From positions 124,001 through 188,000 of the forward strand of contig NW_026250406.1 of assembly GCF_024521635.1 (NCBI RefSeq): DNA of 64,000 nucleotides, read 5' to 3'. Under the pieces are notes generated by a model, which ran no database searches, was not told where the DNA came from, and saw only the letters and a program-made list of their open reading frames with translations. This DNA is from Tricharina praecox (lineage: Eukaryota). Within the stretch, counting starts at the first letter, position 1; each line of letters begins with the position of its first letter. This document shows, in pieces, positions 28,242-49,816 of this stretch. Position numbers and translations under genes: made by a program.

Positions 28242-29440
28242 TTAGGCGGTGATCTTGTCCTTGATGATTTTCCGGAGGGTAATCGCATCGGCTGGGTAAG
28301 TGTTAGTAGTGTACTTGTGAGAAGGGGACAGACAGGTCACTCACCAGCGAAACCACGGATACCCTGACTGAGCTTCTCAGTAGCCATCTGATCCTCGTTA
28401 AGCGCGAAGCGGAACTCGGCCTCGTTATCAACGTAGCTTAGCTTCTCAAGGTCCAAGTTGGTTGCATCCTCAGACGACAGCTTCTTGGGGACCGAGTCCT
28501 CGCTGTTGAACAGCTCCTCGAGAAGGTTGGGCGAGATGGTAAGGTAGTCGCAGCCAGAAAGCTCGGTGATCTCGCCGACATTGCGGAACGAAGCTCCCAT
28601 GACGATAGTCTTGTAGCCGAACTTCTTGTAGTAGTTGAAGATGTTCTGGACGCTCTTGACACCGGGGTCCTCGTTCGAAGCGTACGCCTTTCCGGTCGAG
28701 GCCTTGTACCAATCAAGAATACGACCAACGAAAGGAGAGATCAGGAAGGCACCGGCCTCGGCGGCGGCAATAGCCTGCACCTGGGAGAACATAAGGGTAA
28801 GGTTGCAGTTGATGCCGTGCTTGCTCTGAAGCTCGCGAGCGGCCTGAATACCCTCCCATGTAGAAGCGACCTTGATGAGCACGCGCGACTTGTCAATGCC
28901 GACGGACTTGTAGAGGTCGATGATGTGCAGAGCCTTCTCGACGGAGGCCTTCTTGTCGAAAGAGAGACGGGCGTCGACCTCGGTGGACACCTTGCCGGGA
29001 ATGATCTTCAGGATCTCCTTGCCGAACTCGACGAGGAGACGGTCCATAGCAGCCTCGACCTGCGACTCAACGTCCTTGCCATTGGTCTTACCGTACTCAA
29101 CGGCGGCGTCGACGAGCTTCGCGTACTCGGGCTTCTTGGAGGCGGCGAGGATTAAGGAAGGGTTCGTGGTAGCCTGTATGACGTAGGAACATGGTCAGAA
29201 CATTTCCCCTAGGGAAGATGCACCCAGATGAGGGTGGCGGGGGCATTCGCAAGACGCAGGTATACGCACATCCTGGGGCTGGTACTTGGCGATGGTCGCG
29301 AAGTCTCCGGAGTCGCAGACAACGGTCTATTCACATCAAACGTCAGTTTTCTCTCTCTCTCAATCGACTCTGGTGGCGGGGGAGGGAGGTGGGACACATA
29401 CAGTACCGGCGGCCTTCAACTGGTCAAGAGCGGAAACCAT
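28242..29440 (-). CDS. TAL1: Transaldolase (introns 29401-29327, 29269-29174, 28344-28292)
   Basis: [67 protein letters not shown] motifs. Confidence 0.97.
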
Positions 29441-31252
29441 TGTGAATGATGTAGAAGGAATATTGGGAGGTGGCGAATTGGTGCGGGAGTCGTGCGTTCG
29501 TGCGGGTTGTTTGGATGGCAAGGAGAGAGAGCGTGCTTGAAGGATGAGAAACCTTTCAGCTATAAAGGGTTGTGAAGATGTCAAATCAGGATAGACACCG
29601 GTTGATGGGCAAGCGTCGTTTTCCTGGCTCGGCGCGGGATAGCATTGAGCAGTGAGGGGTTTCCGGGGCACACCCCTCTAGCCAACCAGGGGAGAACCCC
29701 GCTTCCCGAATCTTCCGCTCACTTCTCGACGACAAATCGACGCCCCCAACCAGCTGTGGGTCAATTGCGACAGCCCATGACCGCACGTTGTCGTTTTCCG
29801 CGACGCATTTATCCGGTGCCCACGATCCGTCTGTTAGGTGTCCGCAGCGAGCCAAAGTGCACGTATGCAGACTCAGAGTGCCGTCCACTCCACCACCGGC
29901 AGAGTGCACGCGGCACTCTAGACAGACGGCGCCCTGCAGCAGTATCGCAGATGCGCAGTAGCCCACAATGAACGCCGAACCTGTCTCTTGCAGCGAGGAC
30001 ACAGACCGCCATGTCCGTTCGGCGTTCTCTTCTCCGGTTTCTCCTCGGATTTATCCCAGTCCCGGCCGAAGACACTCCATCACTAAGCCGCTGCAATCTC
30101 GGCTTCTACACCCCGCCAACCCACCCCGCTCCGAGGATGGATGCATGTCAGCTTCTCCGTACGAATGAAATAGCCTGTTGTCAGGAGTCTCCTCCTCAAC
30201 AAACACATCGCCGGCAATAGATAGGCGTCCGTCATATATGCATGGGAAATCGTTAAATTCTATGAGTGCTTTTTCCTCACTGTTTGTTCCGTTGCTCGCG
30301 TTACACGGCGGCGCGCCTACCCTCGATATGTGCGAGGCGAGTTCATTCGCCGTCTTGGTCACTGCCCATCATGTAGAGCTCGGCACTTGTCGCTAAACAC
30401 GTTCTGGGCGACTGCAGCACACCGGCGATAGCGTGGACGTGAGTGACGAGTCGTGAAGGGCTGCGAGGCGAAAACGCTCGTTCCCACCGTATACGGCCGT
30501 AGAACAGAGAGCTTGACACCAAACGAGCTGTATCGCAGCGAGCCGTTCTGGTCTGCTGTTACGGCCGGAATGGTGTGACCATATTCTTTCGATCTGATAG
30601 GTGATTCGCTGGTGTGAAAGGCGAAGGAGCGGCCCCAACAGCGGTGAAGTCGACGTCTCGGCCTGCTACCTAGTTCTGAGTGACCTTGACGAGACCAAAG
30701 CTCTTCGCCGTCACACGAGAAACCACATCTCGGGCGAGTCACGAGTGCACACTTCCGGGGAACTCTGAAGCTGGATCTTTGAGTCCCCATGCCCGGGCCA
30801 ACGATATAGTAACCCTCCATGCGGCAGTTGATTCTGGAGAGAAACAGCCGTGCCTTGTCTCCTCCGGTGTTGGCTATTCATTATCAACTGTAACAGAGAG
30901 GGTCAATACCGAGGGAAGTGCTCCAGTTGAACAAGTTCCGAATGTCCGCAGATGATCCAGCGCGGCGTGTCGGCTCACTATCTGCAAAATCTACGGCTGG
31001 TGTCAAACTGGCCTCTCCGGGGCCCAACAGGCAGCTCCAAGGCGAAAGGGGTGGTTTATAAATGAGGTGGATAGAAGATTATAATAGTATCCGGTACAGC
31101 AAAAACATCATAAGCAGCGAGCTCTCTCTACATACAAATTCCATAGACCAGACAATCTCTGCATCTCCAAACATCCCATATCCCGACACTTCCCGACCCG
31201 AACAGCTCTTCCATCATCGTATCCGCCATAGCGGATCCTCCGATCTTGGTTT

Positions 31253-34047
31253 CAACATCAGGATAGCGCATTTGAACTCGGGAAGTGAAGACTTCCCGAG
31301 CTCTCCGTACAACCGGGTGGGCTTCTTCGAGTGAAAAGGAGGGGTGATTGGCCACGCAGTTATACTGCGCGCCGACATTGAATCTGAAGTTGGCAGTCCT
31401 CGTCAACCCAGACACAGCAAAATGGGAGGTTCGCCTGCTGGTATTCCAGCAGTAGCCAGTCCGCGTGCTGGCGGCGATCGTTTGTCGCCTTGATTCGAAA
31501 CTCCATGATGGCCGGACACCCTAGGGAAATGGATGTGAATGTAGGGCCGAGGCCCTTCTCACCGTCCTGATGAAAGTTAATCTTCTGGTTCTCAAGGTAC
31601 CCCACATTGAGAACCTCGTTAAACTCCACATCAGGGTAGAGCATCTGAACCCTCAGAGTGAGGAGTTCGCGAGCTCTCCGTACAACGGGGTGGACCTCCT
31701 CGAAAATGACGGTCGGTTGGTTCGCCACGTAGTTGTACTGGGCGCCGACATTGTACGTGAAATGGGCAGTCCTTGTCAACCCGGACACAGTCTGCATAGT
31801 TTACCTACGGAAAGGTAGGTTCGCTTACTGGTATTCGGACAGCAGCCAGTCCGCGTCCTGAAATATCCCATTGGTTGCCTTATTGGCAAGCATGTGTGTG
31901 ACGGTCCCGCAACCCGGGGAACAGTTCCAAAATTCTCGGCAGCACAAGGGCTGCATACTGAGCCGCAAAGGCCCCGAAGGGCCCTTGCGACGGACGTCCA
32001 TGGGCGCCGAAGCGCCGTCGTCATCCACATCCAGATCGTCGTCTTCCTTTTCGCTGGGAGACCTATGCTCCCTCCGCTATCGCTTCGAGATTTTCGCCTT
32101 GATGCGAAACTCCATGATGGCCGGACACCCTAGGAAAATAGTTGTGACTGTAGGGCCGAGGCCCTTCTCGCCGTCCTGATGGAAGTTCATCTTCTGGTTC
32201 TCAATGTATCCCACATTGAGAACCTCGTTGAACTCCACATCAGGGTAGAGCAACTGAACCCTCAAAGTGAGGAGTTCGCGAGCTCTCCGTACAACCGGGT
32301 GGGCGTCCTCAAAAGTGACGGTCGGTTGATTCGCCACGTAGGTAGTTGTACTGGGCGCCTACATTGTAGGTGAAATGCGCAGTCCTCGTCAACCCGGACA
32401 CCGCAGTTGGCGCATGACCAACAGTCCCATAACTCTCAGCAGCACAAGGGCTGCAAACTGAGCCGCAAAGGCCCCGAAGGGCCCTTGCGAGGGACGTCCC
32501 CGGGCGCCGAAACGCCATCATCAACCATCACTGGTTTCAGCGGGGAGGGCATTGGTCGCCTTGTTGGCCAACATGTGCGTGGCGGTTCCGCTATCTGGAC
32601 GCTCGAGAGTTTCAGTAAATGTGATGCTCAATCGAAGGCATCAGCGGTCGTGCCAATCTCGGGAATCAGCGACATTTCGAGGTCCTCTTCGGCCGCGGAA
32701 GATTCGGTTTTGATGGTTGGCTTGGGGCGCGGCTTCTTGGAGTTCTCCTCCGAAATGTATCTCGCAGTGGCTGCAATCCTGAAACGCCCGGTAGGAATGG
32801 CCGCGTGCTCCCAGATGGTCTGTATCTTTTCGCCGTGCATGATCACGATGTCTCCGTGATTGAGTTTCAGAGACAGGCGCGCCCGCTTCTTTTCGCCTCT
32901 CTCTTCAGCGGCCTTGTCGTCTTCCTTTTCGCTGGGAGACCAATGCTCCCTCCGTCCTCGCTTCGAGTTTTTCGCCCTGATGCGAAACTCCATGATGGCC
33001 GGTCACCGTAGTTGGCGAATTGCCAACCGTCCCATAACTCTCGGCAGCACAAGGGCTGCAAACTGAGCCGCAAGGGCCCAGAAGGGCCCTTGCGAGGGAC
33101 AACCCCGGGCGCCGAAGCGCCGTCATCATCAACTACCACTGGTTTCAGCGGGGAAGGAGGAGCCTCGGATCCTGCATCCCAAGGCGTCCGCGCATTAAGG
33201 CCTGTCACCGCAGTTCGCACATTTCCAGCAGTCCCAGAACTCCCTGCAGCTCAGACGGCCGCATTTCGCACAGCAAAGGCCCTTCCAGCACTTACGAGAG
33301 ACGTCATCAAGTGCCAAAGTCCCGTCGTCGTCCACATCCATGACAGGCTTGAGGTGTGAAGAAGGAACCTCAGACCCTGCATCTCAAGGCGTCCGCATTG
33401 AGGAAATCATAGTCGTAGACTAGATTCGGTGGAGGAAGATTCACACCATCCATCTGCCAGATATTAGTAACGAAATGAGACTTTAGGAGACTGGTACTTA
33501 CCGTCCACCACAGTGGACATAGGGAGTTCACCCACATCCATCCTTGTGCATAAACTTGTAGGGACTCTTGGTCCCAAACAAGGCACACTACACCATCAAT
33601 CTGCCAGATATTAGTAACGAAATGTATCTTTAGGAGACTGGTACTTGCCTTCCACCACAGTGGACACAGTGAGTTCATGCTCATCCACCCTTGTGCATAA
33701 ACCTGTGGGGACTCTTGGTCCCCAACAAGGCAGCAGCCAGCACCACCAATCTGCTAGATATTAGTAGCGAAACAAGTCATTAGGAGAGTGGTACTTGCCT
33801 TCCACCATAGTGGAAGCATTGGTTGCCTTATTGGCAAGCATGTGCGTGACGGTCCCGCAATCCGGGAACTCGTACTGCATGATGGTCAAACCATCCTTCA
33901 CCACACGTGTATACGTGATACCGTCTCCAACGCTGTTCTGCGGAACAGTGTGGCCGGTGTAGATGACGCGGTCGGAGTTGGCGGGTTGTGTTTGTGTGAA
34001 GATGGGTCTCCGCTGCGGGTAGACCCGGTCACCGCAGTTCGTGCATT
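31253..34047 (-). pseudogene. Patchwork of about 13 rearranged fragments of the 3' half (40714-42070) of the AlkB-family gene at 39401-42054, in inverted orientation
   Basis: Reverse complement aligns piecewise to the gene. Peptides such as TVSGLTRTAHFTYNVGAQYNY, FHQDGEKGLGPT and LKLNHGDIVIMHG recur. Several pieces carry stops or frameshifts. Confidence 0.95.
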
Positions 34048-36644
34048 GCTAATATTAATGCGACCGAGAGAAAAAAGGAGGAGTAGGGAGAGGATGACGA
34101 GGACGAGGAGGAGGAGAGGATCGTGACCACAAGGGTCTGAGATAGCGATGGTATAGTCGCAAGGACCTGATGTTGAGAGAAGAAGGTGAATGATGGTAGA
34201 GAAAGAAGGAAGACAGGTGGTGGTGGTGGCAGCAGCTTAGATATAAGATTCGTGTGTGTGTGTGGGCGGAAAAAGCACGTCGCGGACAGTGTGGGCGGAC
34301 CGTCGTGGGCGAAAAGCCCGTCGCGGACAGTGCAGGTGGACCGTTGTAGTCGAGGGCGAGGGCAAGGCGACGGCCGCCGAGCAATGCGTGGATGAGCTTG
34401 CGATTATCACCACTCTCGACCGTCGAAGCCACCCCACCCCACCCGTTCCAGAATATTGGTCGACATCATTCCCTCCTGTCTGATATAGTATGTAGCTATA
34501 GGAGTGTAATCGTGCGCATACTCTCTGCAGTCGTTGTAAAACTAATTGCGGCCGAGACCACCACTTTCGCGAAGGATGACGATCCAACCGCACGGATTGT
34601 CACTCGGAAGAAGTATGACTTCACTCCAGATAAACGTGAAGGTCACGATTGCATGGACAGTAGAGTATTCATTGCCATAATCTAGACAGGCCGTAAGCAA
34701 TTGATGATTAGACAAAGCAGCTTATGATTGCATACCTATCTACCACTAAGCTCGAGCCCACTCCTTTTCTTACCGGTGTCCGGTAGGAAGCAGAGGAAAC
34801 CCGACACTGCTCGTGCCCGAGCTCTTTTCCTGTCCACCTCTATCATTCCACCCCAAAGTCTGCTTTGGCGAGTGACTTCCAATGATCAAGTATCGTAGAA
34901 GGCTATCACTCAAATCGCCACACATACTAGCTACGTCAGCAGTGTGTCGTAACTCAATAAAGGCACAAATCGAATACCTATCTCATCCCATACGTCTGGT
35001 CATCTCCCCTCCTTGCCGTAACTGTTCTCCACACGCCGAGTAGTTCCGCACAAACCAGATGCAGAATCAACATTCATGGTTTCGGTATATAAAAGTAAAG
35101 AACATAGAACAGGCTGACAAGTCGTATCCTTTTTCTCAACAGTCAATGTAAGTCCCCGGGGGGCAAGTCCTACCGTACCTGAAAGTTGAAACTCCTTATC
35201 CGGGAGCAACCTGTATTCCAGCCGATTCGCCACCAGCCCCCTCAGAGGCAGCCATCTCTATCGCGCTATGTCAACATTTCATATCGCTCATTGTCCGCCT
35301 CGCTATCGTCAAATTCTAGCTATAGTTCGACGTGTTGTGACTTGCTTCGCTAACCTATTCGATATCTGCTCTTCACCATCTTGGATCCCAGGAGATAGGT
35401 ATAAGTGCGGGATATTGAAAGGACATGCTCCACTCTTTCGATTCGCGTGCTAGGAAACATCAGCATATGCAAAGGCAATGGAGCACCTTAGAACTTACTC
35501 TTTCGAATGACCACGGCCCTGCGGTGGGATTCCCAACGCGGAAGCTTCTCGGATGGAAAACACTAGGTCGGGGAAATGTTCTTCCGAATGCCCCAATGAT
35601 TGCCAATTTGCAATCAGCAATATCTGTTTGCACCCAGCGATGATTAAGCCACCGATGACCCCGAGTCCAAGTATGGCGCTCCTGTCTCATGTGGTCGTAC
35701 GGCGTCTCGAATCCGGAATCAGTGCACCTCCTACGCACCAAGTGCCGAAGCCTCAGACAGTGTCTGGGCGGAGGGCAATGCCGGCGATGGACATTCAGCA
35801 CCCTCTCGGGATCCATTTCGCAAAGTCGCACTCAACTACCCGTTTGCTGGTAGGTACGGAAGCATGCGTCCGTATAGTAATGCCACCCCCAGCCCAGTTT
35901 GAGACCATTCTCTCCAACTCATGGTGTGTCCAGGTCCTTCTCCTTGTCCGTCCGCTCACTTTTCGCTTGCGAAGCTCAGTCTGTCTCTGCGTGCGAAGCA
36001 GTAGTAGGGAATCTGCATCCGAATCGACCACCGGAATACCTCCATGAACGGATTCAAGGCCAAGTGTGTCGTTCGCAGCGATAACGACTTGTCGCCGAGT
36101 CGTTTAGCCCAATGGTTGGTGGTGGTCTCTGGTAGCCCAAACCCGGCGATACCTTGATAGCATTCCACAGCCTGCCGAGTCTTAGCATCTTTTCAAACTT
36201 CTCAATTGTTCTCGGCCTACCAAACTACACATAGCGAAATTGTCGCCGTCGGTAGGAGCTGTCGTCTGTTTGATTCACCCGATAAATTGTCAGTGTTTTG
36301 CTTATAACGCCGGGTAGGTACTTGATAGTGGGACTGACAGCGACAAGTTGGTAGGGTGCTCGTCGCAGCGCGTTCCCGTAGTAACTAACTCGGTAGCTAT
36401 GTTTACTGAATCGAATCGCCGCTCTTGACTTCTCCGCCAGGAATGTCGATACGTCAAACTGCACTCGGTGATATGTAAACAGCCGCTATTTCGGGTGTCG
36501 GCAGGCAGCGTAGCAACAGCTGCAAGCCTGCAACACCAACAAGCTCAATGCCAAGCTCGCCAAAGCTGGTCCGTGCGTCAGGAACGCGAGAACCCCAGAT
36601 TCTTCCTCACACCACCGCCATTGCCACCCGCCATCTCCACGATC

Positions 36645-37084: not shown

Positions 37085-38179
37085 GAGGAGGTATGCGGGC
37101 AGGCGGCCATACTCATGGGCATGATGCGTATCATCGAGGATGCGGTCTGGCGCTGTGGATTGGGACATGTGCTGGGTGTTCTCGGCGGAGTTGTATGATG
37201 AATTCACGAGAGCTATGTACTTGAATAGTGCCGGTAACTTCGGGGCGGGGTCATCTTCTCTTGAAGCACCCGTTCCTCCGAGGAAGAGGAGCTTGAAGCC
37301 CGTCCATCCATAGGAATCAAGGACTATACATCCACGCGACACCCAGGCCACTGCGAAACCATGGACGTTGGGACTCGGGAGCTTCGAGTGTGCTGCCTGT
37401 TCCCAGAGCGTGAGATGTAACTTGTGCGTGCTATGTATAGTATACGGAACAGACCGTTGCTCGTCTGCAGAATTCCAGAATTGCAGGGGTTCATTCGACT
37501 CGGCTGTTCCATTCGGACGTCGATGGCCTAGCTTTTGCCCACTCCCTAAACCCACTGGAAGAATTAAGCAGGCAAGCATGCACACATCCGTCATCGGGGA
37601 AAGAACCACTTGAGCGGGTCGGGAGCACGTGTCGCATAGCCATACATATAACCTCAGTCCAACACCCTACGCGACCACAGCAAGTCACACTCCAAGAGAG
37701 AAGCCAGAGGGGATCGGAGCCAGCTCATCGATAGTTATCGACGTCCGTCCAACGCGATCTACCACCCGTCTCGTGCTGTGGCGGCTAAAGATACCAGCCA
37801 CCACATAAAGATCCACCAGCAGACCAGCCAGACTGCCATCCCGACTGAGCTGTACGTGTCCGTGAGCAGTTTCAATCGAAGCAGGCTCTGGGTGGAAGCG
37901 AATTGAGCTGAATTGACTTGGTTGTCCTGGTAAAAATAGAGTGAAGCAGAAGGAGGAAGCACCAGCAGTACATGCCAGTAGTACATACCAGCAGATTTCG
38001 TGTCTGGAGGAAAGCACTTAAGCCAGCGTAAATTCTCAGTCCGTTGGGAGGACAGCAGCAATAGATCCGGAGCTTCACGATCAAAACAACCGGAGCTTCA
38101 CGATCAAAACAACCAAAGCATCCGGGGCTGTCCAACCAGAGAATCCAGACACATTCAATCTGGGCCAACATAATCAGTG

Positions 38180-38464
38180 TCCTCGCTCAGACTGTCCTCG
38201 CTCAAGCTGTCCTCCTCGCTCAAGCTGTCCTTCTCGCTCAGGCTGTCCCCGCTCAAGCTGTCCTCCTCGCCCAGGCTGTCCTCGCTCAAGCTGTCCTTCT
38301 CGCCCAGGCTGTCCTCGCTCAAGCTGTCCTTCTCGCTCAGGCTGTCCTCGCTCAGGCTGTCCTCGCTCGGGCTGTCCTCCTCGCTCAAGCTGTCCTCCTC
38401 GCTCAAGCTGTCCTCGCTCAAGCTGTCCTCCTCACTCAGGCTGTCCTCGCTCAGGCTGTCCTCG
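38180..38464. repeat. 15/18-bp minisatellite, unit CTCGCTCA(A/G)GCTGTC(CTC/CTT)
   Basis: About 17 imperfect units; the minus-strand reading EDSLS has no in-frame ATG. Confidence 0.9.
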
Positions 38465-38739
38465 AATGACTTCACAGATCTAGCAAGACCCGAGCGCAGC
38501 TTCCCTGCTGTACGTATCGTACATCTGAGGTATCCCGCACATCTAAGGTACCCTGCGCTGCAGCTCTACATTCAATCCGTCCATATCGGGTAACCTCCCT
38601 CTAGATCTGTCGTTGTCCTGCAGCTCCATAGAACTTTTCCCTCTTGGAACCTTCAAAAGGCACGGCCAGCAACGGTCTCCTAGCAACCATTCAATTGCAC
38701 CACACGGTCTTTTGAGCAAGTAGTGTGCTCGCCGCCATC

Positions 38740-38745: not shown

Positions 38746-39400
38746 GACCCCCCGGTCGTCCCATCTTCTGGTTTTTTTCATCCCATCCTCCTCAATCCTT
38801 CAATCCTCCATAGATCCTTCACAACCTCCGACAATTTCCTTCCACAATTTCCTTCCACACATTCCTTCCACAGTTTCCTTGCACCCAAATAAAGTAAGTT
38901 CAATCTCCTTCATCGTCCGATAGTTTCATCTCTGGTTCCATCGGTGCACTTGCAATTATTCGGCGAACCATTGTGGCGGTGCACAATGTATCATCAGTAG
39001 TGGCTCGCCGAACTTTGTCGTGCATTTCTGTTCCTTATTTTCGACTTTCCCTTTAGCTGTCTCGCCCACCGGTTGATAATGAATGGGAGCTGACCCTCAG
39101 TTGATAGGAACACAATGGAATCATCATCTATTCCAAAGAGCCTCAGTAAGTACCCTCGCTGGCCTGTTTCATCTCTTTCACATCCTCTCTCACCTGTCTT
39201 ATCGCCTTGGAACGATTCTATCTTTGTTAACCTTTGTTTTTCTTTCCTCATGTTGCGAGAATTTATCATGTATCCATCAATGCTGACATCCTGCTCCCGC
39301 TACAGACGGCGAGACTGGTTCTCTGGAACTGGTTTCTAGCCCGCTCTCCAGCCCCCCATCCACCATTCTGACGCCTGTATTTGGGCCGATCAATGAAGTC

Positions 39401-42054
39401 ATGGAGGATATGATGGACATGGGGGATTTCTCTGTGTCTGATCACGAAGATGTCACTCCCACTACATCTAATCTCGAAGAAGATGTCGCTCCCACTGCAT
39501 CTATACTCGAAGAAGATGTCACTCCCACCACATCTAATCTCGAAGATTTCGCTCCCGCCACATCTGATCACGAAGATGTCGCCCCCACCGCTGAGTTCGG
39601 CAATAATGTGCTGGGAAATACCACTGCAATGGAGGTGGACACACCCGTCACTGGTTCATGTATGCCTTTCGCTACCCTTAATTCTTATTTATCCGCAAGA
39701 ACTGACTGATATCACTAGCCATCAACCAAGCTAATCCGGAGACGCTTGCGGATGACAACCACGGCCCAAATAAACCTCGACCGTGCACCCAGTAAGTTCA
39801 CCAACCACTTCTCTATAAGACACCAATCTAATCCCTACAACAGATGTCAAACCCACAAGAAATATTGCGATAGACAGATTCCTTGTGGGTCTTGCATCGC
39901 GAAAAAGACGCCACACCGTTGTGAGAGGGCTCCGACGACGTCGACTCGTGTACCGCAGGTAAAAGCAAATCGAGGTATCAAGCACAAGGCCAGTGCGGTA
40001 CCCCTCGCAGGAAACCCCCACAAGCTCTTGAAGAAAGACAATACCGATATCAGCAAGGATGTTCCGAAACCGGCTACAAAACCGCCCGGATTGCGTCTAC
40101 CAGACATCTGGTGCGAAGTATGTTATTCCAGACTCAATAGTTGCTCTACTTTTCCTAACTTATACCTCTAGACGCGCCAAGAGCTTTGTGAAGGGCTTCC
40201 TTACTACCGAGCTTACCAGAGCGGTGCATACGGCCATGATGGCGTGGTCCATGGGTACCTTCTGGATGGCTGTCCGTCCGAGCGGGAGTTCATGAGCGGC
40301 AAGGTGGTCATGTCGCACTGCGGAGGAAAATCAGAGGACGCCGGAAATGGGATGCGAAAGCTGCGACAGAACCAAACCGTGGACGACATCAGGGTCAAAT
40401 CTCTTCTGACAAACATGCAGAACCAGATCCCTCTCGTCTTGTTGATTGGTAAGTAACTATATCTATACTACTTTGCGTCATTGATTGCTGACTCGTACGG
40501 ACAGGGAACCAGTGCGGAGCCAGCCCGAGCCAGCTCCATCACCGCTATGCGGTGATGGACTGGTTCAAAATAACCCACGCCTGGGAGGAGCAGTGCACTC
40601 TCAGCAAGTTCACGAGGTGGAGGTTCCGCTTCGAGAAACTTGATTTCTCGACCGATGGCTGGTGGGCCACGGAGGTCTCGGAGATCGATCGAGAGGCCCA
40701 GGTCAAGGGGGCGGTCTGCCTTGTCTGTAAACAAGAGTCCCCACAAGTCTATGCACAAGGGTGGATGTGCATGAATTCCCTATGTCCACTGTGGTGGAAG
40801 GCAAGTACCAGTCTCCTAAAGACTCGTTTCGTTACTAATATCTGGCAGATGGATGGTGTGAGTCCTCCACCAGTCAATCTAGTCTATGACTATGATTTCC
40901 TCAATGCCCGGACCCCTTGGGATGAAGGGTCCGAGGTTCCTCCTTCACCCCTCAAGCCTGTCATGGACGTGGACGACGACGGGGCTTTGGCGCTTGATGA
41001 CGTCTCTCGTAAGTGCTGGAAGGGCCTTTGCTGTACGAAATGCGGCCGTCTGAGCTGCAGGGAGTTCTGGGACTGCTGGAAATGTGCGAACTGCGGCGAC
41101 CGGGTCTACCCGCAGCGGAGACCCATCTTCACACCGACACAACTCGCGGACCCCCACCGCGTCATCTACACCGGCCCCGCCGTTCCACAGAACAGCGCTG
41201 GAGACGGTATCGCATATTCCCGTGTGGTGAAGGAAGGCTTCACCATCATGCAGTACGAGCTCCCGGGTTGCGGGACCGTTACTCACATGCTTGCCAATAA
41301 GGCAACGAACGGGAGATTTCAGGACGCGGACTGGCTGCTGTCCGAGTACCAGCAAGCGAACCTCCCTTTCCGTAGGTACACCATGCAGACTGTGTCCGGG
41401 TTGACGAGGACTGCCCATTTCACGTACAACGTCGGCGCCCAGTACAACTACGTGGCGAACCAACCGACCGTCACTTTCGAGGAGGCCCACCCCGTTGTAC
41501 GGAGAGCTCGCGAACTCCTCACTCTGAGGGTTCAGATGCTCTACCCTGATGTGGAGTTTAACGAGGTTCTCAATGTGGGGTACATTGAGAACCAGAAGAT
41601 GAACTTTCATCAGGACGGTGAGAAGGGCCTCGGGCCGACAGTCGCATCCATTTCGCTAGGGTGTCCGGCCATCATGGAGTTTCGCATCAAGGCGAAAAAC
41701 TCGAAGCGAGGGCGGAGGGAGCATAGGTCTCCCAGCGAAAAGGAAGACGACGACGAAGCTGTGGCCAAGGCCGCTGAAGAGAGGTGCGAAAAGAAGCGGG
41801 CGCGCCTGTCTTTGAAACTCAATCACGGAGACATCGTGATCATGCACGGCGCGAGGATACAGACCATATGGGAGCACGCGGCCATTCCTACCGGGCGTTT
41901 CAGGATTGCGGCCACCGCGAGATACATTTCGGAGGAGAATTCTAAGAAGCCGCGCCCCAAGCCAACCATTAAGGCTGAACCTTCCGCGTCCGAAGAGGAC
42001 CTCGACATGTCGTTGATCCCCGAGATTGGCACGACCACCGATGCCTCCGATTGA
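39401..42054 (+). CDS. Zn2Cys6 + SRA-like + Cys-cluster + AlkB-type 2OG-Fe(II) dioxygenase (introns 39660-39718, 39792-39843, 40118-40171, 40449-40504, probable GC-AG 40801-40848)
   Basis: Splicing gives one continuous frame. CTQCQTHKKYCDRQIPCGSCIAKKTPHRC = CX2CX6CX5CX2CX8C. The AlkB-type set is N-x-x-Y...HQD...SISLG...HGD...EH...RIAATAR. The SRA-like call for the middle segment (RQELCE..YQSG..SHCGG..RYAVMDWFKI..RFRFEKL) is by recollection of the family and is less certain. Confidence 0.88.
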
Positions 42055-42206
42055 GCATCACGAAACTTTCGGTTTTCTATTTTTTTCCGAGTCGACATGA
42101 TACGCACAGTTCGCTCATTCTGAGTCAGAACTTTACTTGATTCGATGACTATTCTTTCTACTACTATTTACTTTTACTTGGGGATTACAACGGAGTTCGG
42201 GGATAC

Positions 42207-42330
42207 GGGATTGGCTTGCTTTTTACTGGTTTGCGAGGGATGCGGGATTGGCGTTGCTTGATCTTATTGATTTGAGATGGATGCGGGATTGGCTTGCTTG
42301 CTTCTTACTGATTTGAGAGCGATGCGGGAA
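42207..42330. repeat. About 39-bp tandem repeat x3 in the 3' UTR of the AlkB-family gene
   Basis: Unit roughly CGGGATTGGCTTGCTT...TTACTGATTTGAGA..GATG. Confidence 0.8.
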
Positions 42331-45023: not shown

Positions 45024-47780
45024 CTACTCTTCATCGGGCCTAGTATCGCCGTACTTCCACATTCCCAAGTGCGCCTCCATAGCCTGATGCATAGCCGCAT
45101 CAAGGTCCGCAATGACGTCCGCGTACGCGTTACGGATGCCAGGCAGCATCTTCGCGGGGACGTAAGCGAGGCCCGCGGCGACCAAGTCGCGGTTGATGCT
45201 CGCGCCGGAGGTCGCGGCTTCGGGCTCGAAGAGGGTGACCATGAGGGAGCCGTCCGACTTGACGTGGTCGACGTTGGCGACGAGCTGGCGGTTGCCAGTG
45301 AGGCTGACCACCATGTCGTAAGCGTCTTCGGCGTACATGCTATCGGAGGGGAACTGGAGGAACGACCAGGTTGCGTCGGCGGCCTGGGGCTTGAGACGGT
45401 CTGCCGAGAACTGGGGCGCGAGGGGACGCATGCGCGTCCATGAAATCTTCTCAGAGTTGCCGAAGTCGACGTAGAGGACCTCGGCTTCCTTTGCGGTACG
45501 GTCGACGTGGCGAATTCTGGCGCGGTAGAAAGTGTCGTCCTCGGTGAACTTGGCGGCAACGAGCTGGCCGACCTTGGGGGGTCCCTCGATCGGCTTGTTG
45601 TTGGCAGGCTGGAGATGGAACTTGCGGAAAGACTGCATCAGCTCCTCGAGGGCGGAGGTGCCGGCGCCAACAAGCTGAAGCTTCAGATTGCCGAGGGTGT
45701 CCGAGTGAGAAACGACGACATCGCGGTAGTCCTTCTTCCGCTCGACGGTTTCTTGCTTGGTGACGTAGCTCGTGGTGTCCTCTTGCTCGGCAGCCTCCTT
45801 CTCAGGACTCCAGTCGTGCCACATTCCCTTGTGTGCAGTCTTCGCCCGGGTCTCGGCCGCAAACAGTTCGTTGGCGTGTCCGGTCTTCTCGGCAGAATAG
45901 GCGTGGACACTGGCCAGTCCCTCCTCGACGAGGCCTCTGGCAACGTTCTCGCGGTTGACGTACATGGTACCGATGAAACCACCGACACGATCGATGTCCT
46001 CAACATCGATTTCGACATCGCGCTGCATGCACTTCTTGGAGACGTACTCTAGTGCTTCCGGGCCGAAGGGCTCCGACTGCTCGTTGGGGTTCCTTGCGGT
46101 TCTCGGGCATCGGATACCGCTCAGGATGAATGTGAGACGCGCATTCTCCTTGGGGATGATGACCTTGAATCTGGAACCAGATGCGACAAAGTCGACGATA
46201 GCGGGGACCCTCTTCTGGCGCTGGAGGAAAGAAAGATAACTCTTGGCCTTCTGTAGAGTCTCAGAAGCCTCGACCATCTTAGCCGACGCAGGTGCCTTCG
46301 AGGCGTACATTCCCTTCGACTCCTTCCTGGCAGCCTCCTCAGCAGCGGCAAGACTGTCCCAGATAGGAGACCGATCAGTGTCGTCCTTTCGGTGGCGAAC
46401 AACGGAAGCATATCCGTTCTCAACCATGAGAAGAGCGATGTTCTTGTCGGCCAGAGTGACAGTAGCCATTTCTCTCTCCTCGTAGCCCTCCTGTGCTGCC
46501 CGCTTTCCGTCGATGCTGACGCGTACGTGCTTGCCGATGAGCTTCTTTCGCAGGAACTCCTTAGCATCCGCCTGGAAGGGCGATTGCGCCGGGTCCGACG
46601 GCTTGGGCTGTCTGATGCTGGAGAGGTTGAGCTTCCGCTCCGCGCCGGCCTTGTTTCTCACAAAGATGGTATCCGCACTAAGGATACGCGAGACCACAGC
46701 ATCAAATTCGCTACCAGACTCCTTCTTCTTCGGTACGTGCGCCTTGAAGACTCGAAGCTGGTTGTCTCTTGCGTGCTTCTCGGCATCTCTGAGTCTGGCC
46801 ATTGCAGCTCCGAGGAAGCCGCTGTGGTAGTCCACACATCTGGCGTAACCCTGGGCAAGGAGGAGTTCGGCAATGTTTCCGGCAGGATGCACAATCGAAC
46901 CGACGAGCTGGCCTTGAGGGCTGACCCCGAGAAGGTCGACGTGGATAGTACGCTGAAGAAGACGGGCCTCGACGAAGTCCTTTGCCTCGTCACCGTACTC
47001 TTCACCGGGGGTGACCATCTGGTTCGCGTCCATTCGGGTAGAGAGAGGTGCACGAACACCAGCGAGGAGAAGAACAAGCTGCTGGTGAAGCTTGGGGGAG
47101 ATGATCATGCGAACCGCGAACCTGTCGGCGGAGATGACACGCTCAATGATGGCTGTGACAACAAGCAAAAAATATCAGCCTCCATCTCACGACATAGTGA
47201 TCAAACACAAACTCACCAGCAATCTGCTTCCCCTTATGCTCCTCGAGGAAATCATGCGGGCTAGCAGGCAGATCATATCTCGCATCGATATGATTATCGC
47301 CGCTCAAGTTCCACACGCCCTTTCCCGCGCTCCTCGCCTGGTCCTCGTAGATGCGGAGCTTATCGACCAGCACGTTGTCCTCGATCCTCTGCGTGTCGTC
47401 ACGGAGCTTGACCTGGCCCTCGGAGACGAGAACTTCCAGGAGCGAACGGCCGTCGGCAAGATTGACGATTCCCAAGTCGCGGTTGGTGTTGGGAACATTC
47501 TGCGTGATGACGAACTGCACTTCCTTGTCCACGACGAGCTTGCGCAGGTAGTCGCGGGATTGGAATGCATGGGGCTATATACACCGAGACGTCAGCAAGC
47601 AAGCCCGGCCTAAATAGATGCTCAAGCTCAGGTGGATGTGCGTACCTCGTCACCCTCGCGGCGGAGGCGCGGGGCGGAAACGTAGGCGAGTGTCAGGATC
47701 TTCTCGGCGTTGGATTTGCTCGACTTGAGGATCAAGGTGTCGCCGCTGGTGACAGCTTTCACTTTTGCGAGAAGAGCCAT
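45024..47780 (-). CDS. SND1: Tudor staphylococcal nuclease (introns 47645-47575, 47216-47153)
   Basis: Repeated SNase domains (VKAVTSGDTL, VISADRF, ILSADTI, VASGSRF) and a Tudor domain (AAKFTEDDTFYRARI...VLYVDFGNSE). Confidence 0.96.
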
Positions 47781-48858: not shown

Positions 48859-49816
48859 TTAGTTGTTGGTGATTCCGATGACACCTAAGGTCACATATCA
48901 GCCCTGTTCCCGCACCGTGGAACGGAAGAAACAGATATCACTTACCGCAAGCGGGGCGGAGACCAGCGTTTCCGGTGGTGACGGACAGCTCGTGTCCTCC
49001 CTTGCCGAGGTCATCAGTGCCGGCGTGGACAACGACAGTCCTCTGCAGCCTCACAGTCAGCCATGCATCCACATCAGCCTTTCTCACCGACAGTACTCAC
49101 TCCCAAGACGCTCTGGGGGCCAATCAGCTTGATGAGGTGGTCCTCGATGCGGCCCTTGGCAACACCGTCGGCGTCGGTCTTGATGTTACCCAAGTCACCC
49201 ACGTGGCGGTTGTCGTCGGTGGGAGCACCGTGGGTCTTTCCGAAGGGGTTGAAGTGGGGACCGGCGGAGGTGCAGCCGTTGGTGTTGTCACCGAACTCGT
49301 GGATGTGCATGCCACGCTCGGCGTTGGCATCGACGTGCTTGATCTCGTACTCGATGATGGTGGGGGCGTTCTCGTTCTCCTGCGAGAACTTGACGGTGCC
49401 GGAGACACCGGAGTCACCGCGGACGACAGCAACTATGGGCGCATCGAGGTCAGTTGCGTTCTTGCGCAGCAAACGACACGCGGGGGGAAGAGAGGCGAGG
49501 AGACAGCCGAGGAGAGGTGTGAGTGCCAGCAAGGTGTCTGTTGACTGCAGGAAGGTGCTGGACCCGTGCATAGATGAACATCCGCAAGCCAACCAGTGGC
49601 AACTATAAAGACCCTGGCGTCCTCTATTCTCGCCCACACCTTTGCCCCCTCCTGCTATCTCGTTGTACCTCCTCCTCACCCTCCTCTTCCTTCTCTTCCT
49701 CCTCCGTTCTCCCAATCGCCAGCCGACATCCGGATTCAAGCGCCCAATCCGACAGAACGGGAAGCGACAGACAGGACAGAAAAAAGGAAACGAATTGACT
49801 TACCAGCCTTGGCCAT
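48859..49816 (-). CDS. SOD1: Cu/Zn superoxide dismutase (exons 49816-49804, 49432-49101, 49042-48946, 48884-48859)
   Basis: [56 protein letters not shown]. Confidence 0.98.

Follow-up and report, generated by a model that had tools for sequence, protein, structure and literature searches.

How fungi remove methyl groups from their DNA is poorly understood, and in a 2026 review on DNA methylation in fungi CcTet and the Mucor enzyme Dmt1 are the sole characterised demethylases named in the portions available (PMC13297926). Left undiscussed in those portions is a family that has been a prediction of comparative genomics since at least 2016, when Iyer, Zhang and Aravind described a group of proteins in which a SAD (SRA) domain is joined to a zinc ribbon and an AlkB-type 2-oxoglutarate- and Fe(II)-dependent dioxygenase (AlkB-2OGFeDO), with CC1G_01939, AN3951.2, AFUA_5G07420 and SNOG_03244 among the members named (PMC4738411). 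There this version of SRA is considered divergent, an unlikely reader of 5-methylcytosine (5mC), and one that may read N6-methyladenine (m6A, or 6mA) in RNA or DNA, so that the enzymes would be m6A demethylases. The subject here is a gene in 64,000 nucleotides (nt) of Tricharina praecox DNA (assembly GCF_024521635.1, contig NW_026250406.1, positions 124,001 to 188,000 of the forward strand; hereafter the window, numbered from its first letter). It is best explained as encoding one protein of nuclear type and 836 amino acids (aa), of the fungal SAD(SRA), zinc ribbon and AlkB family, in a sub-lineage of which an N-terminal Zn2Cys6 cluster precedes the other modules. An earlier sequence-only reading of the stretch had mentioned fungal SRA-AlkB fusions that lacked a Zn2Cys6 domain, and the accessible sections of PMC4738411 bear this out.

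On balance the domains point to a DNA base demethylase that brings its own DNA anchor as the probable role, with the likely substrate divided roughly evenly between 5mC, 6mA and alkyl lesions.

This is fungal DNA with many introns, and the initial multi-exon model came from a listing of stop-to-stop open reading frames combined with a scan for splice sites. The joined translation of its seven exons is, letter for letter, the annotated hypothetical protein BZA05DRAFT_471384 of Tricharina praecox (P0001), and a database protein search gave 100% identity to P0001 for the last exon (40849-42051). The locus is a real seven-exon fungal gene with one continuous protein, in which four folded modules are recognised. 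The sequence-only reading had placed it at 39401..42054: its coordinates were right save for the start, which was an internal Met, the annotated start being at 39115, where a short first exon is followed by an extra intron of 160 nt (39146-39305). That intron went unmentioned, as did 40801-40848, the only one of the six that is GC-AG, the 5′ ends of the other five being GTAAGT or GTATG. That 40801-40848 might be coding read-through was ruled out by a run contig and by the annotated protein, from both of which the segment is missing. The evidence for splicing otherwise consists of contigs from two runs (X1 and X2) that are only guessed to be RNA, with 31 letters on the shorter side as the bar for accepting a joint. 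Introns 39146-39305 and 39660-39718 are skipped by run contigs with 38 and 47 letters on the shorter side, and 40801-40848 by a mismatch-free one with 176, joined at 40798>40847; the contig that skips 40118-40171 has 23, below the bar, and the joint is weak. If intron 3 or intron 5 (40449-40504) were retained, a stop would follow after one and two codons, respectively. Orthologue alignments run ungapped across both of these junctions and the zinc cluster is uninterrupted in the orthologues. As a separate observation, contigs of both runs share the spliced 39602-39659 plus 39719-39765 and have unlike sequence beyond both ends; such loose ends at 39602 and 39765 could come from a second locus with the same segment or from an assembly chimera.

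The GAL4-type six-Cys motif that the sequence-only reading had thought hidden by intron 39792-39843 is indeed present: C-x2-C-x6-C-x5-C-x2-C-x8-C, which fits the Zn2Cys6 spacing C-x2-C-x6-C-x5-12-C-x2-C-x6-8-C, is visible only once that intron is spliced out. Shuffling P0001 200,000 times gave the pattern 5 times. A profile (A2) was built from 11 family segments picked by the six-Cys pattern, which makes Cys invariance among them circular. Against the PDB (177,635 sequences), all 15 of its matches at E<=1 were Zn2Cys6 DNA-binding domains, the best including Pho7 (2.2e-5), Cep3 (1.8e-4), Hap1 (1.9e-3) and Gal4 (0.059), with Lac9 and Put3 also matched, in keeping with the identity first proposed. 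In the AlphaFold2 (AF2) model the cluster has a predicted local distance difference test (pLDDT) score of 76-87 and short helices at aa 152-156 and 168-172, and a protein atlas gave a structural match to Zn_clus with a template modelling (TM) score of 0.75, to be taken as a lead only. A chance pattern of Cys residues is ruled out by the specificity of the A2 profile, recurrence in the family and rarity in shuffles, and aa 151-179 is accepted as a divergent Zn2Cys6 cluster, predicted to bind zinc and DNA. How it would do so is another matter: the linker behind it (aa 185-225) is basic and predicted to be disordered (pLDDT <50), and P0001 has neither a coiled coil after the cluster in the AF2 model nor a fungal_trans domain by Pfam. 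A linker of this kind, with no coiled coil, gives no reason to assume that the cluster binds specific sequences as a dimer in the way that GAL4 does. Ahead of the cluster aa 1-145 are also predicted to be disordered (pLDDT 29-35), and within this acidic region lies an imperfect direct repeat (39437-39498 against 39533-39591, 79% identical) of units resembling ‘EDV(T/A)PT..S.LEE’.

For the segment behind the linker the sequence-only reading had suggested an SRA-like domain, a suggestion now borne out by fold as well as by profile. A family profile (A1) found the solved SRA domains of SUVH5 (E 4.1e-7), SUVH4 (1e-3) and SUVH6 (6e-3). In a VIA-align structural search against representatives, in which model residues 238-392 and beyond were aligned, the matches were TagI (6ghs, Z 15.7), the NP95 SRA (2zo0, Z 14.3), KRYPTONITE (4qen, Z 14.2), the SUVH5 SRA (3q0b, Z 13.8, root mean square deviation 2.5, 132 of 148 residues aligned), SUVH9 (Z 11.1) and ScoMcrA (Z 9.5). 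The predicted fold of aa 238-392 is that of SRA, in a divergent version. Pfam SAD_SRA (PF02182) matches 13 of 44 aligned relatives, the set from which all conservation counts here are taken, and each of these matches is under the cut-off (the best 24.1 bits against 30.7). The GG motif is kept in 44 and 43 of the relatives at its two positions and the DQ motif in 37 and 38 (N311-Q312 in P0001). Among the residues of the 5mC pocket, the SUVH5 Asp stands opposite a conserved R282-D283, for which P0001 has E283, and the upstream stacking Tyr falls outside the alignment. In the hidden Markov model (HMM) alignment, the Tyr of the YTGxGG motif (‘IYTGQGG’ in SUVH5), which we take to be one of the residues that stack on 5mC, is replaced by Ser292, in a column with 29 Ser, 7 Thr and 4 Ala among the 44.

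The two Cys clusters that had been picked out between the SRA-like and dioxygenase parts, as well as the complete HxD...H...RxxxxxR core claimed for the latter, both held up in the family comparison. All eight Cys of the clusters are each kept in 43 of the 44 relatives, and the comparison of the two ribbons with a protein atlas gave, besides the family's own clusters, nothing other than weak zinc-ribbon leads (TM 0.2-0.3). Pfam 2OG-FeII_Oxy_2 (PF13532) is matched at aa 594-784 with 65.5 bits against a cut-off of 31.2, and by all 44 relatives. ALKBH3, ALKBH2 and E. coli AlkB take the top ranks in Foldseek (E 1e-11 to 1e-8; ALKBH3 8jnr 1.2e-11), while VIA-align gave Z 19.1 for ALKBH3 (root mean square deviation 2.6, 197 residues aligned), 17.7 for ALKBH2, 16.4 for FTO, 15.2 for E. 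coli AlkB, 12.0 for NMAD-1 and 9.6 for CcTet. H689-x-D691, H778 and R787-x5-R793 align to the WHSDDE, WQH and RVNLTFR motifs of ALKBH3; by analogy with that enzyme H689, D691 and H778 are taken as metal ligands and R787 and R793 as the arginines for 2-oxoglutarate. They are kept, in the order H689, D691, H778, R787 and R793, in 44, 44, 42, 43 and 43 of the relatives, and the active site for Fe(II) and 2-oxoglutarate seems to be intact.

How widely is this arrangement shared? An exhaustive search of representative proteins gave 1381 matches with E<=1e-3, of which 404 had E<=1e-30. The last exon matches CC1G_01939 (P0068) with E 2.7e-31, and P0001 has its SRA-like domain, zinc ribbons and AlkB domain in the order of the group described in PMC4738411. 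Among 228 family proteins surveyed, an HMM made from A2 found the zinc cluster upstream of SRA in 20 (E<=1.7e-8). Ten are from Pezizales (Tricharina, Trichophaea, Sphaerosporella, Geopyxis, two from Rhizina, Choiromyces and three from Tuber), and the others are from Sarcosagium and Pseudogymnoascus (6 proteins), with 3 further proteins; Sarea has a degenerate relic of the cluster (E 3e-4). By the same HMM the cluster is absent from the two Pyronema proteins and from all members from Basidiomycota and Dothideomycetes, and a homology search with the Zn and SRA part alone (12 matches) added no bearer. The whole arrangement is thereby shown, at the level of predicted proteins, to be conserved in Pezizales, as well as in some Leotiomycetes and Lecanoromycetes. 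A G-x-W-x-x-P stretch ahead of Cys1 is common to the modules in three fungal classes, and together with the recurrence of the cluster this suggests a retained, selected module; the common stretch points to a single origin with losses, not repeated gain. In a FastTree tree of 59 of the 228 proteins (42 named and 17 other chosen representatives), with 15 bearers labelled, 6 label changes were counted; this figure is an overestimate and is not relied on, the bearers P0223, P0224 and P0227 having been counted as without cluster. The fusion is accordingly not unique to this gene. In the literature covered, no experimental work on the family was found. Among the SAD architectures listed in the PMC4738411 supplement, as far as available, none has a zinc cluster, and its available text makes no mention of binuclear, C6-finger, Tuber or Pyronema. 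No Zn2Cys6-AlkB fusion was found in the literature, subscription papers being outside coverage, and locus tags of the listed family members turned up in one passing mention. As far as these searches reach, the SRA-AlkB family is already in print in silico and the Zn2Cys6 addition, common to a clade-scattered subfamily, is unreported.

SRA and Zn2Cys6 domains of solved structure bind duplex DNA, and the presence of both here favours a duplex DNA substrate. DNA is also favoured by the accessory modules, three of the four being from DNA-binding families. The enzyme would then act on DNA, with the Zn2Cys6 cluster tethering it to the duplex; lacking a coiled coil behind it, the cluster probably works alone. 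A flipped-out modified base would be taken up by the SRA-fold domain, the zinc ribbons may supply extra nucleic-acid contacts, and the ALKBH3/2-like domain would strip a methyl or alkyl group from the base by oxidation. A core of that kind favours N-methyl lesions, while 5mC is kept among the candidates because ALKBH2, ALKBH3 and AlkB oxidise it in vitro (PMC6582317).

Several points weigh against an enzyme acting on duplex DNA, or against the domain assignments from which that role is derived. ALKBH3 has a preference for single strands and counts RNA among its substrates, which leaves room for an RNA substrate here. Ser at the position of the canonical SRA pocket Tyr means that canonical flipping and reading of a base are not assured. 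At the Pfam level, Zn_clus (PF00172), for which the cut-off is 21 bits, reaches 13.2 with an exon piece that lacks Cys1 and has no match in P0001 at E<=0.1, and SAD_SRA likewise has none in P0001 at E<=0.1; among the relatives Zn_clus matches one of 44 (P0008, 17.9 bits, under the cut-off of 21). Introns 39792-39843 and 40449-40504 are bridged by none of the joints listed for the contigs of the two runs, and the bin 40352-40472 is without cover in X1. Orthologues in Pyronema manage without the zinc cluster, and the module is to that extent dispensable for the core role of the family. Lastly, the accessible text of PMC4738411 leaves the substrate as ‘RNA or DNA’, and within the literature covered, from which subscription papers fall out, no biochemical or genetic work on any member was found.

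On which base, then, would a demethylase anchored to DNA in this way act? If it merely repaired alkylation damage, reversing lesions of the 1-methyladenine and 3-methylcytosine type with accessory domains that raise its affinity for chromosomal DNA, no epigenetic role would be called for. Among solved structures ALKBH3 and ALKBH2 come closest in both profile and fold, and both are repair enzymes; however, a modified-base reader fold and a zinc cluster of transcription-factor type are odd baggage for a lesion scanner, and repair as the whole of its function is unlikely. The family is, besides, sporadic in fungi and not universal, as judged from the accessible supplement (PMC4738411).

The sequence-only reading had proposed a locus-specific reader and eraser of 5mC, that is, an active demethylase independent of TET in which Zn2Cys6 picks sites of CGG type, SRA flips 5mC and AlkB oxidises it. 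Zinc cluster, SRA and AlkB modules are all present and conserved, and the activity of AlkB-type enzymes on 5mC in vitro noted above is in its favour. So is the heavy, ‘partly reversible’ CpG methylation in Pezizales such as Tuber, for which the main text, in the parts available, names no demethylase (PMC4165359). However, the altered pocket argues against simple 5mC reading, its Tyr being Ser, Thr or Ala in 40 of the 44 relatives, and Iyer et al. considered this SRA version an unlikely 5mC reader (PMC4738411). The AF2 model has no dimerisation element of coiled-coil type behind the cluster, and the family occurs also in lineages that lack the cluster. The proposal is plausible yet doubtful.

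Equally doubtful is removal of N6-methyladenine from DNA or RNA, as Iyer, Zhang and Aravind suggested for the SAD-fused AlkB group from the distinct features of its SRA version (PMC4738411). The exchange of Ser for Tyr in the pocket would fit an altered specificity. Yet 6mA is prominent in early-diverging fungi and not in Dikarya (PMC13297926), and the characterised fungal 6mA eraser of AlkB type, Dmt1, is a relative of NMAD-1, to which the present fold is less close than to ALKBH3 (Z 12.0 against 19.1). Somewhat more doubtful again is the most specific version of 5mC removal, that Pezizales and a few other Pezizomycotina have an AlkB-type enzyme, neither TET nor glycosylase, that is brought to defined sequences by its own Zn2Cys6 cluster and there erases 5mC read by its SRA domain; if true, such sequence-targeted demethylation could account for the partly reversible methylation of transposons in truffles. 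That the fusion is an artefact of the gene model, with the zinc-cluster exons belonging to a separate upstream gene misjoined to the dioxygenase, has in its favour the two introns with no joint listed and the 23 letters of the joint 40117>40172, and was rejected as very improbable on the recurrence of the order zinc cluster, linker, SRA, ribbons and AlkB in 20 proteins from independent genome annotations and on frame and stop evidence, there being neither stop nor alternative start structure between the parts, a stop within one to two codons if intron 3 or 5 is retained, and a contig that joins, weakly, the exon with five of the six Cys to the first SRA exon.

A DNA base demethylase with its own anchor, the role preferred here, would be of interest for several reasons. 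Its zinc-cluster members offer a testable handle, as a self-contained predicted DNA-binding module could reveal the target sites of the enzyme, and for Pezizales CpG methylation of repeats is well documented. Should the substrate be 5mC or 6mA in duplex DNA, evolution would here have fused a base demethylase to a domain that targets DNA, a case relevant to fungal epigenetics and to the design of epigenome editing. If it is a repair enzyme only, the architecture would be an ordinary lineage-specific accretion of domains.

The surroundings of the gene have features of their own. The other strand carries, some 5 kb upstream, a scrambled array (31251-34048, minus strand) of at least 8 partial copies of its 3′ half, which cover gene positions 40714-42061 (zinc ribbon 1 to stop) with 74-95% DNA identity, in scrambled order and with broken frames. 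Its differences from the gene are biased: C>T and G>A changes outnumber their reverse by 82 to 35, and 28 of these 82 are in CpG context. Run contigs end exactly at boundaries of array copies and one contains the 117-nt spacer that separates two of the fragments, from which it follows that the array is present in those runs, and transcribed if the runs are RNA. The array may have arisen as an inverted duplicate that is methylated or in decay; a regulatory role for it is speculation. In the 3′ flank (42200-42330) are about four copies of a unit of about 45 nt with GATGCGGGATTGGCTTGCTT; a mismatch-free contig covers 42094-42478, and the repeats are on that account probably 3′ untranslated region. 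Upstream, 38155-38600 is a low-complexity repeat, open in several frames on both strands (‘EDSLSE’ or ‘SLKLSS’), and is probably no gene but a tract of microsatellite type. The flanking open reading frames are ordinary, with no link to the zinc-cluster SRA-AlkB gene evident; they are listed in Table 1 after the features of that gene.

Table 1. Positions in the window of the gene, its predicted modules and the flanking open reading frames (ORFs)
Feature	Position	Strand	Remarks
Coding region, ATG to TGA	39115..42054	+	7 exons, 6 introns, 836 aa
Exons	39115-39145, 39306-39659, 39719-39791, 39844-40117, 40172-40448, 40505-40800, 40849-42054	+	Translation identical to P0001
Acidic N-terminal region, rich in S/T/E/P/D	39115..39659	+	Exons 1-2; about aa 1-129 of the predicted disordered aa 1-145
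Predicted Zn2Cys6 binuclear cluster	39784..39922	+	aa 151-179, divided by intron 39792-39843
Intron 3	39792..39843	+	52 nt, GTAAGT...CAACAG; conceals the zinc cluster from ORF tracks
Predicted divergent SAD/SRA-fold domain	40097..40671	+	aa 238-392; contains introns 40118-40171 and 40449-40504
Putative zinc ribbon 1	40717..40785	+	C408, C411, C425, C430; short strands in AF2 model
Intron 6	40801..40848	+	48 nt, in frame, GC-AG; not in P0001; skipped by contig
Putative zinc ribbon 2	41032..41094	+	C497, C500, C514, C517
Predicted AlkB-type Fe(II)/2-oxoglutarate dioxygenase domain	41191..41934	+	aa 550-797; variable charged insert at about aa 717-752
Transaldolase ORF	28337-29194	-	E 5e-85
Tudor-SN nuclease ORF	45024-47174	-	SNase 2e-60 and TUDOR 1.5e-20
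Cu/Zn superoxide dismutase-like ORF	49074-49799	-	3e-33

Set beside known systems, the protein shows both likenesses and departures. With the Zn2Cys6 domains of Pho7, Cep3, Hap1, Lac9, Gal4 and Put3 the cluster shares six Cys in canonical spacing and a Pro before Cys4; the residue before Cys3 is aromatic (F/Y) in this family where Pho7 has Lys, and P0001 is without the linker-plus-coiled-coil dimerisation element and the fungal_trans middle domain. The cluster is carried here by an enzyme and not by a transcription factor. The SRA domains of UHRF1/NP95, of SUVH4, 5, 6 and 9, and of the bacterial SRA-HNH endonuclease TagI are alike in fold (Z 11.1-15.7) and in the GG and DQ motifs, and unlike in that here the YTGxGG Tyr has become Ser292 and the Pfam SAD_SRA cut-off is missed. 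Human ALKBH3 and ALKBH2 and E. coli AlkB have the same double-stranded beta-helix, HxD...H triad and RxxxxxR motif, though the domain identity to P0001 is just 20-25%, and the human enzymes are single-domain proteins in comparison with the charged insert and the roughly 550 extra N-terminal residues, arranged in modules, of P0001. CcTet, of the TET/JBP family, and Mucor Dmt1, an NMAD-1-like AlkB, are Fe(II)/2-oxoglutarate dioxygenases that act on methylated DNA bases, the role proposed here, but they belong to other clades (Z 9.6 for CcTet and 12.0 for NMAD-1 against 19.1 for ALKBH3); for neither do the available portions of PMC13297926 mention an SRA or Zn2Cys6 module. Closest of all is the group of Iyer et al. 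2016 (PMC4738411, in its accessible sections), the parent family, with which the present protein shares a divergent SRA, zinc ribbons and an AlkB core, as well as their order, and from which it differs by the N-terminal Zn2Cys6 cluster that has been added here and in 19 other family proteins.

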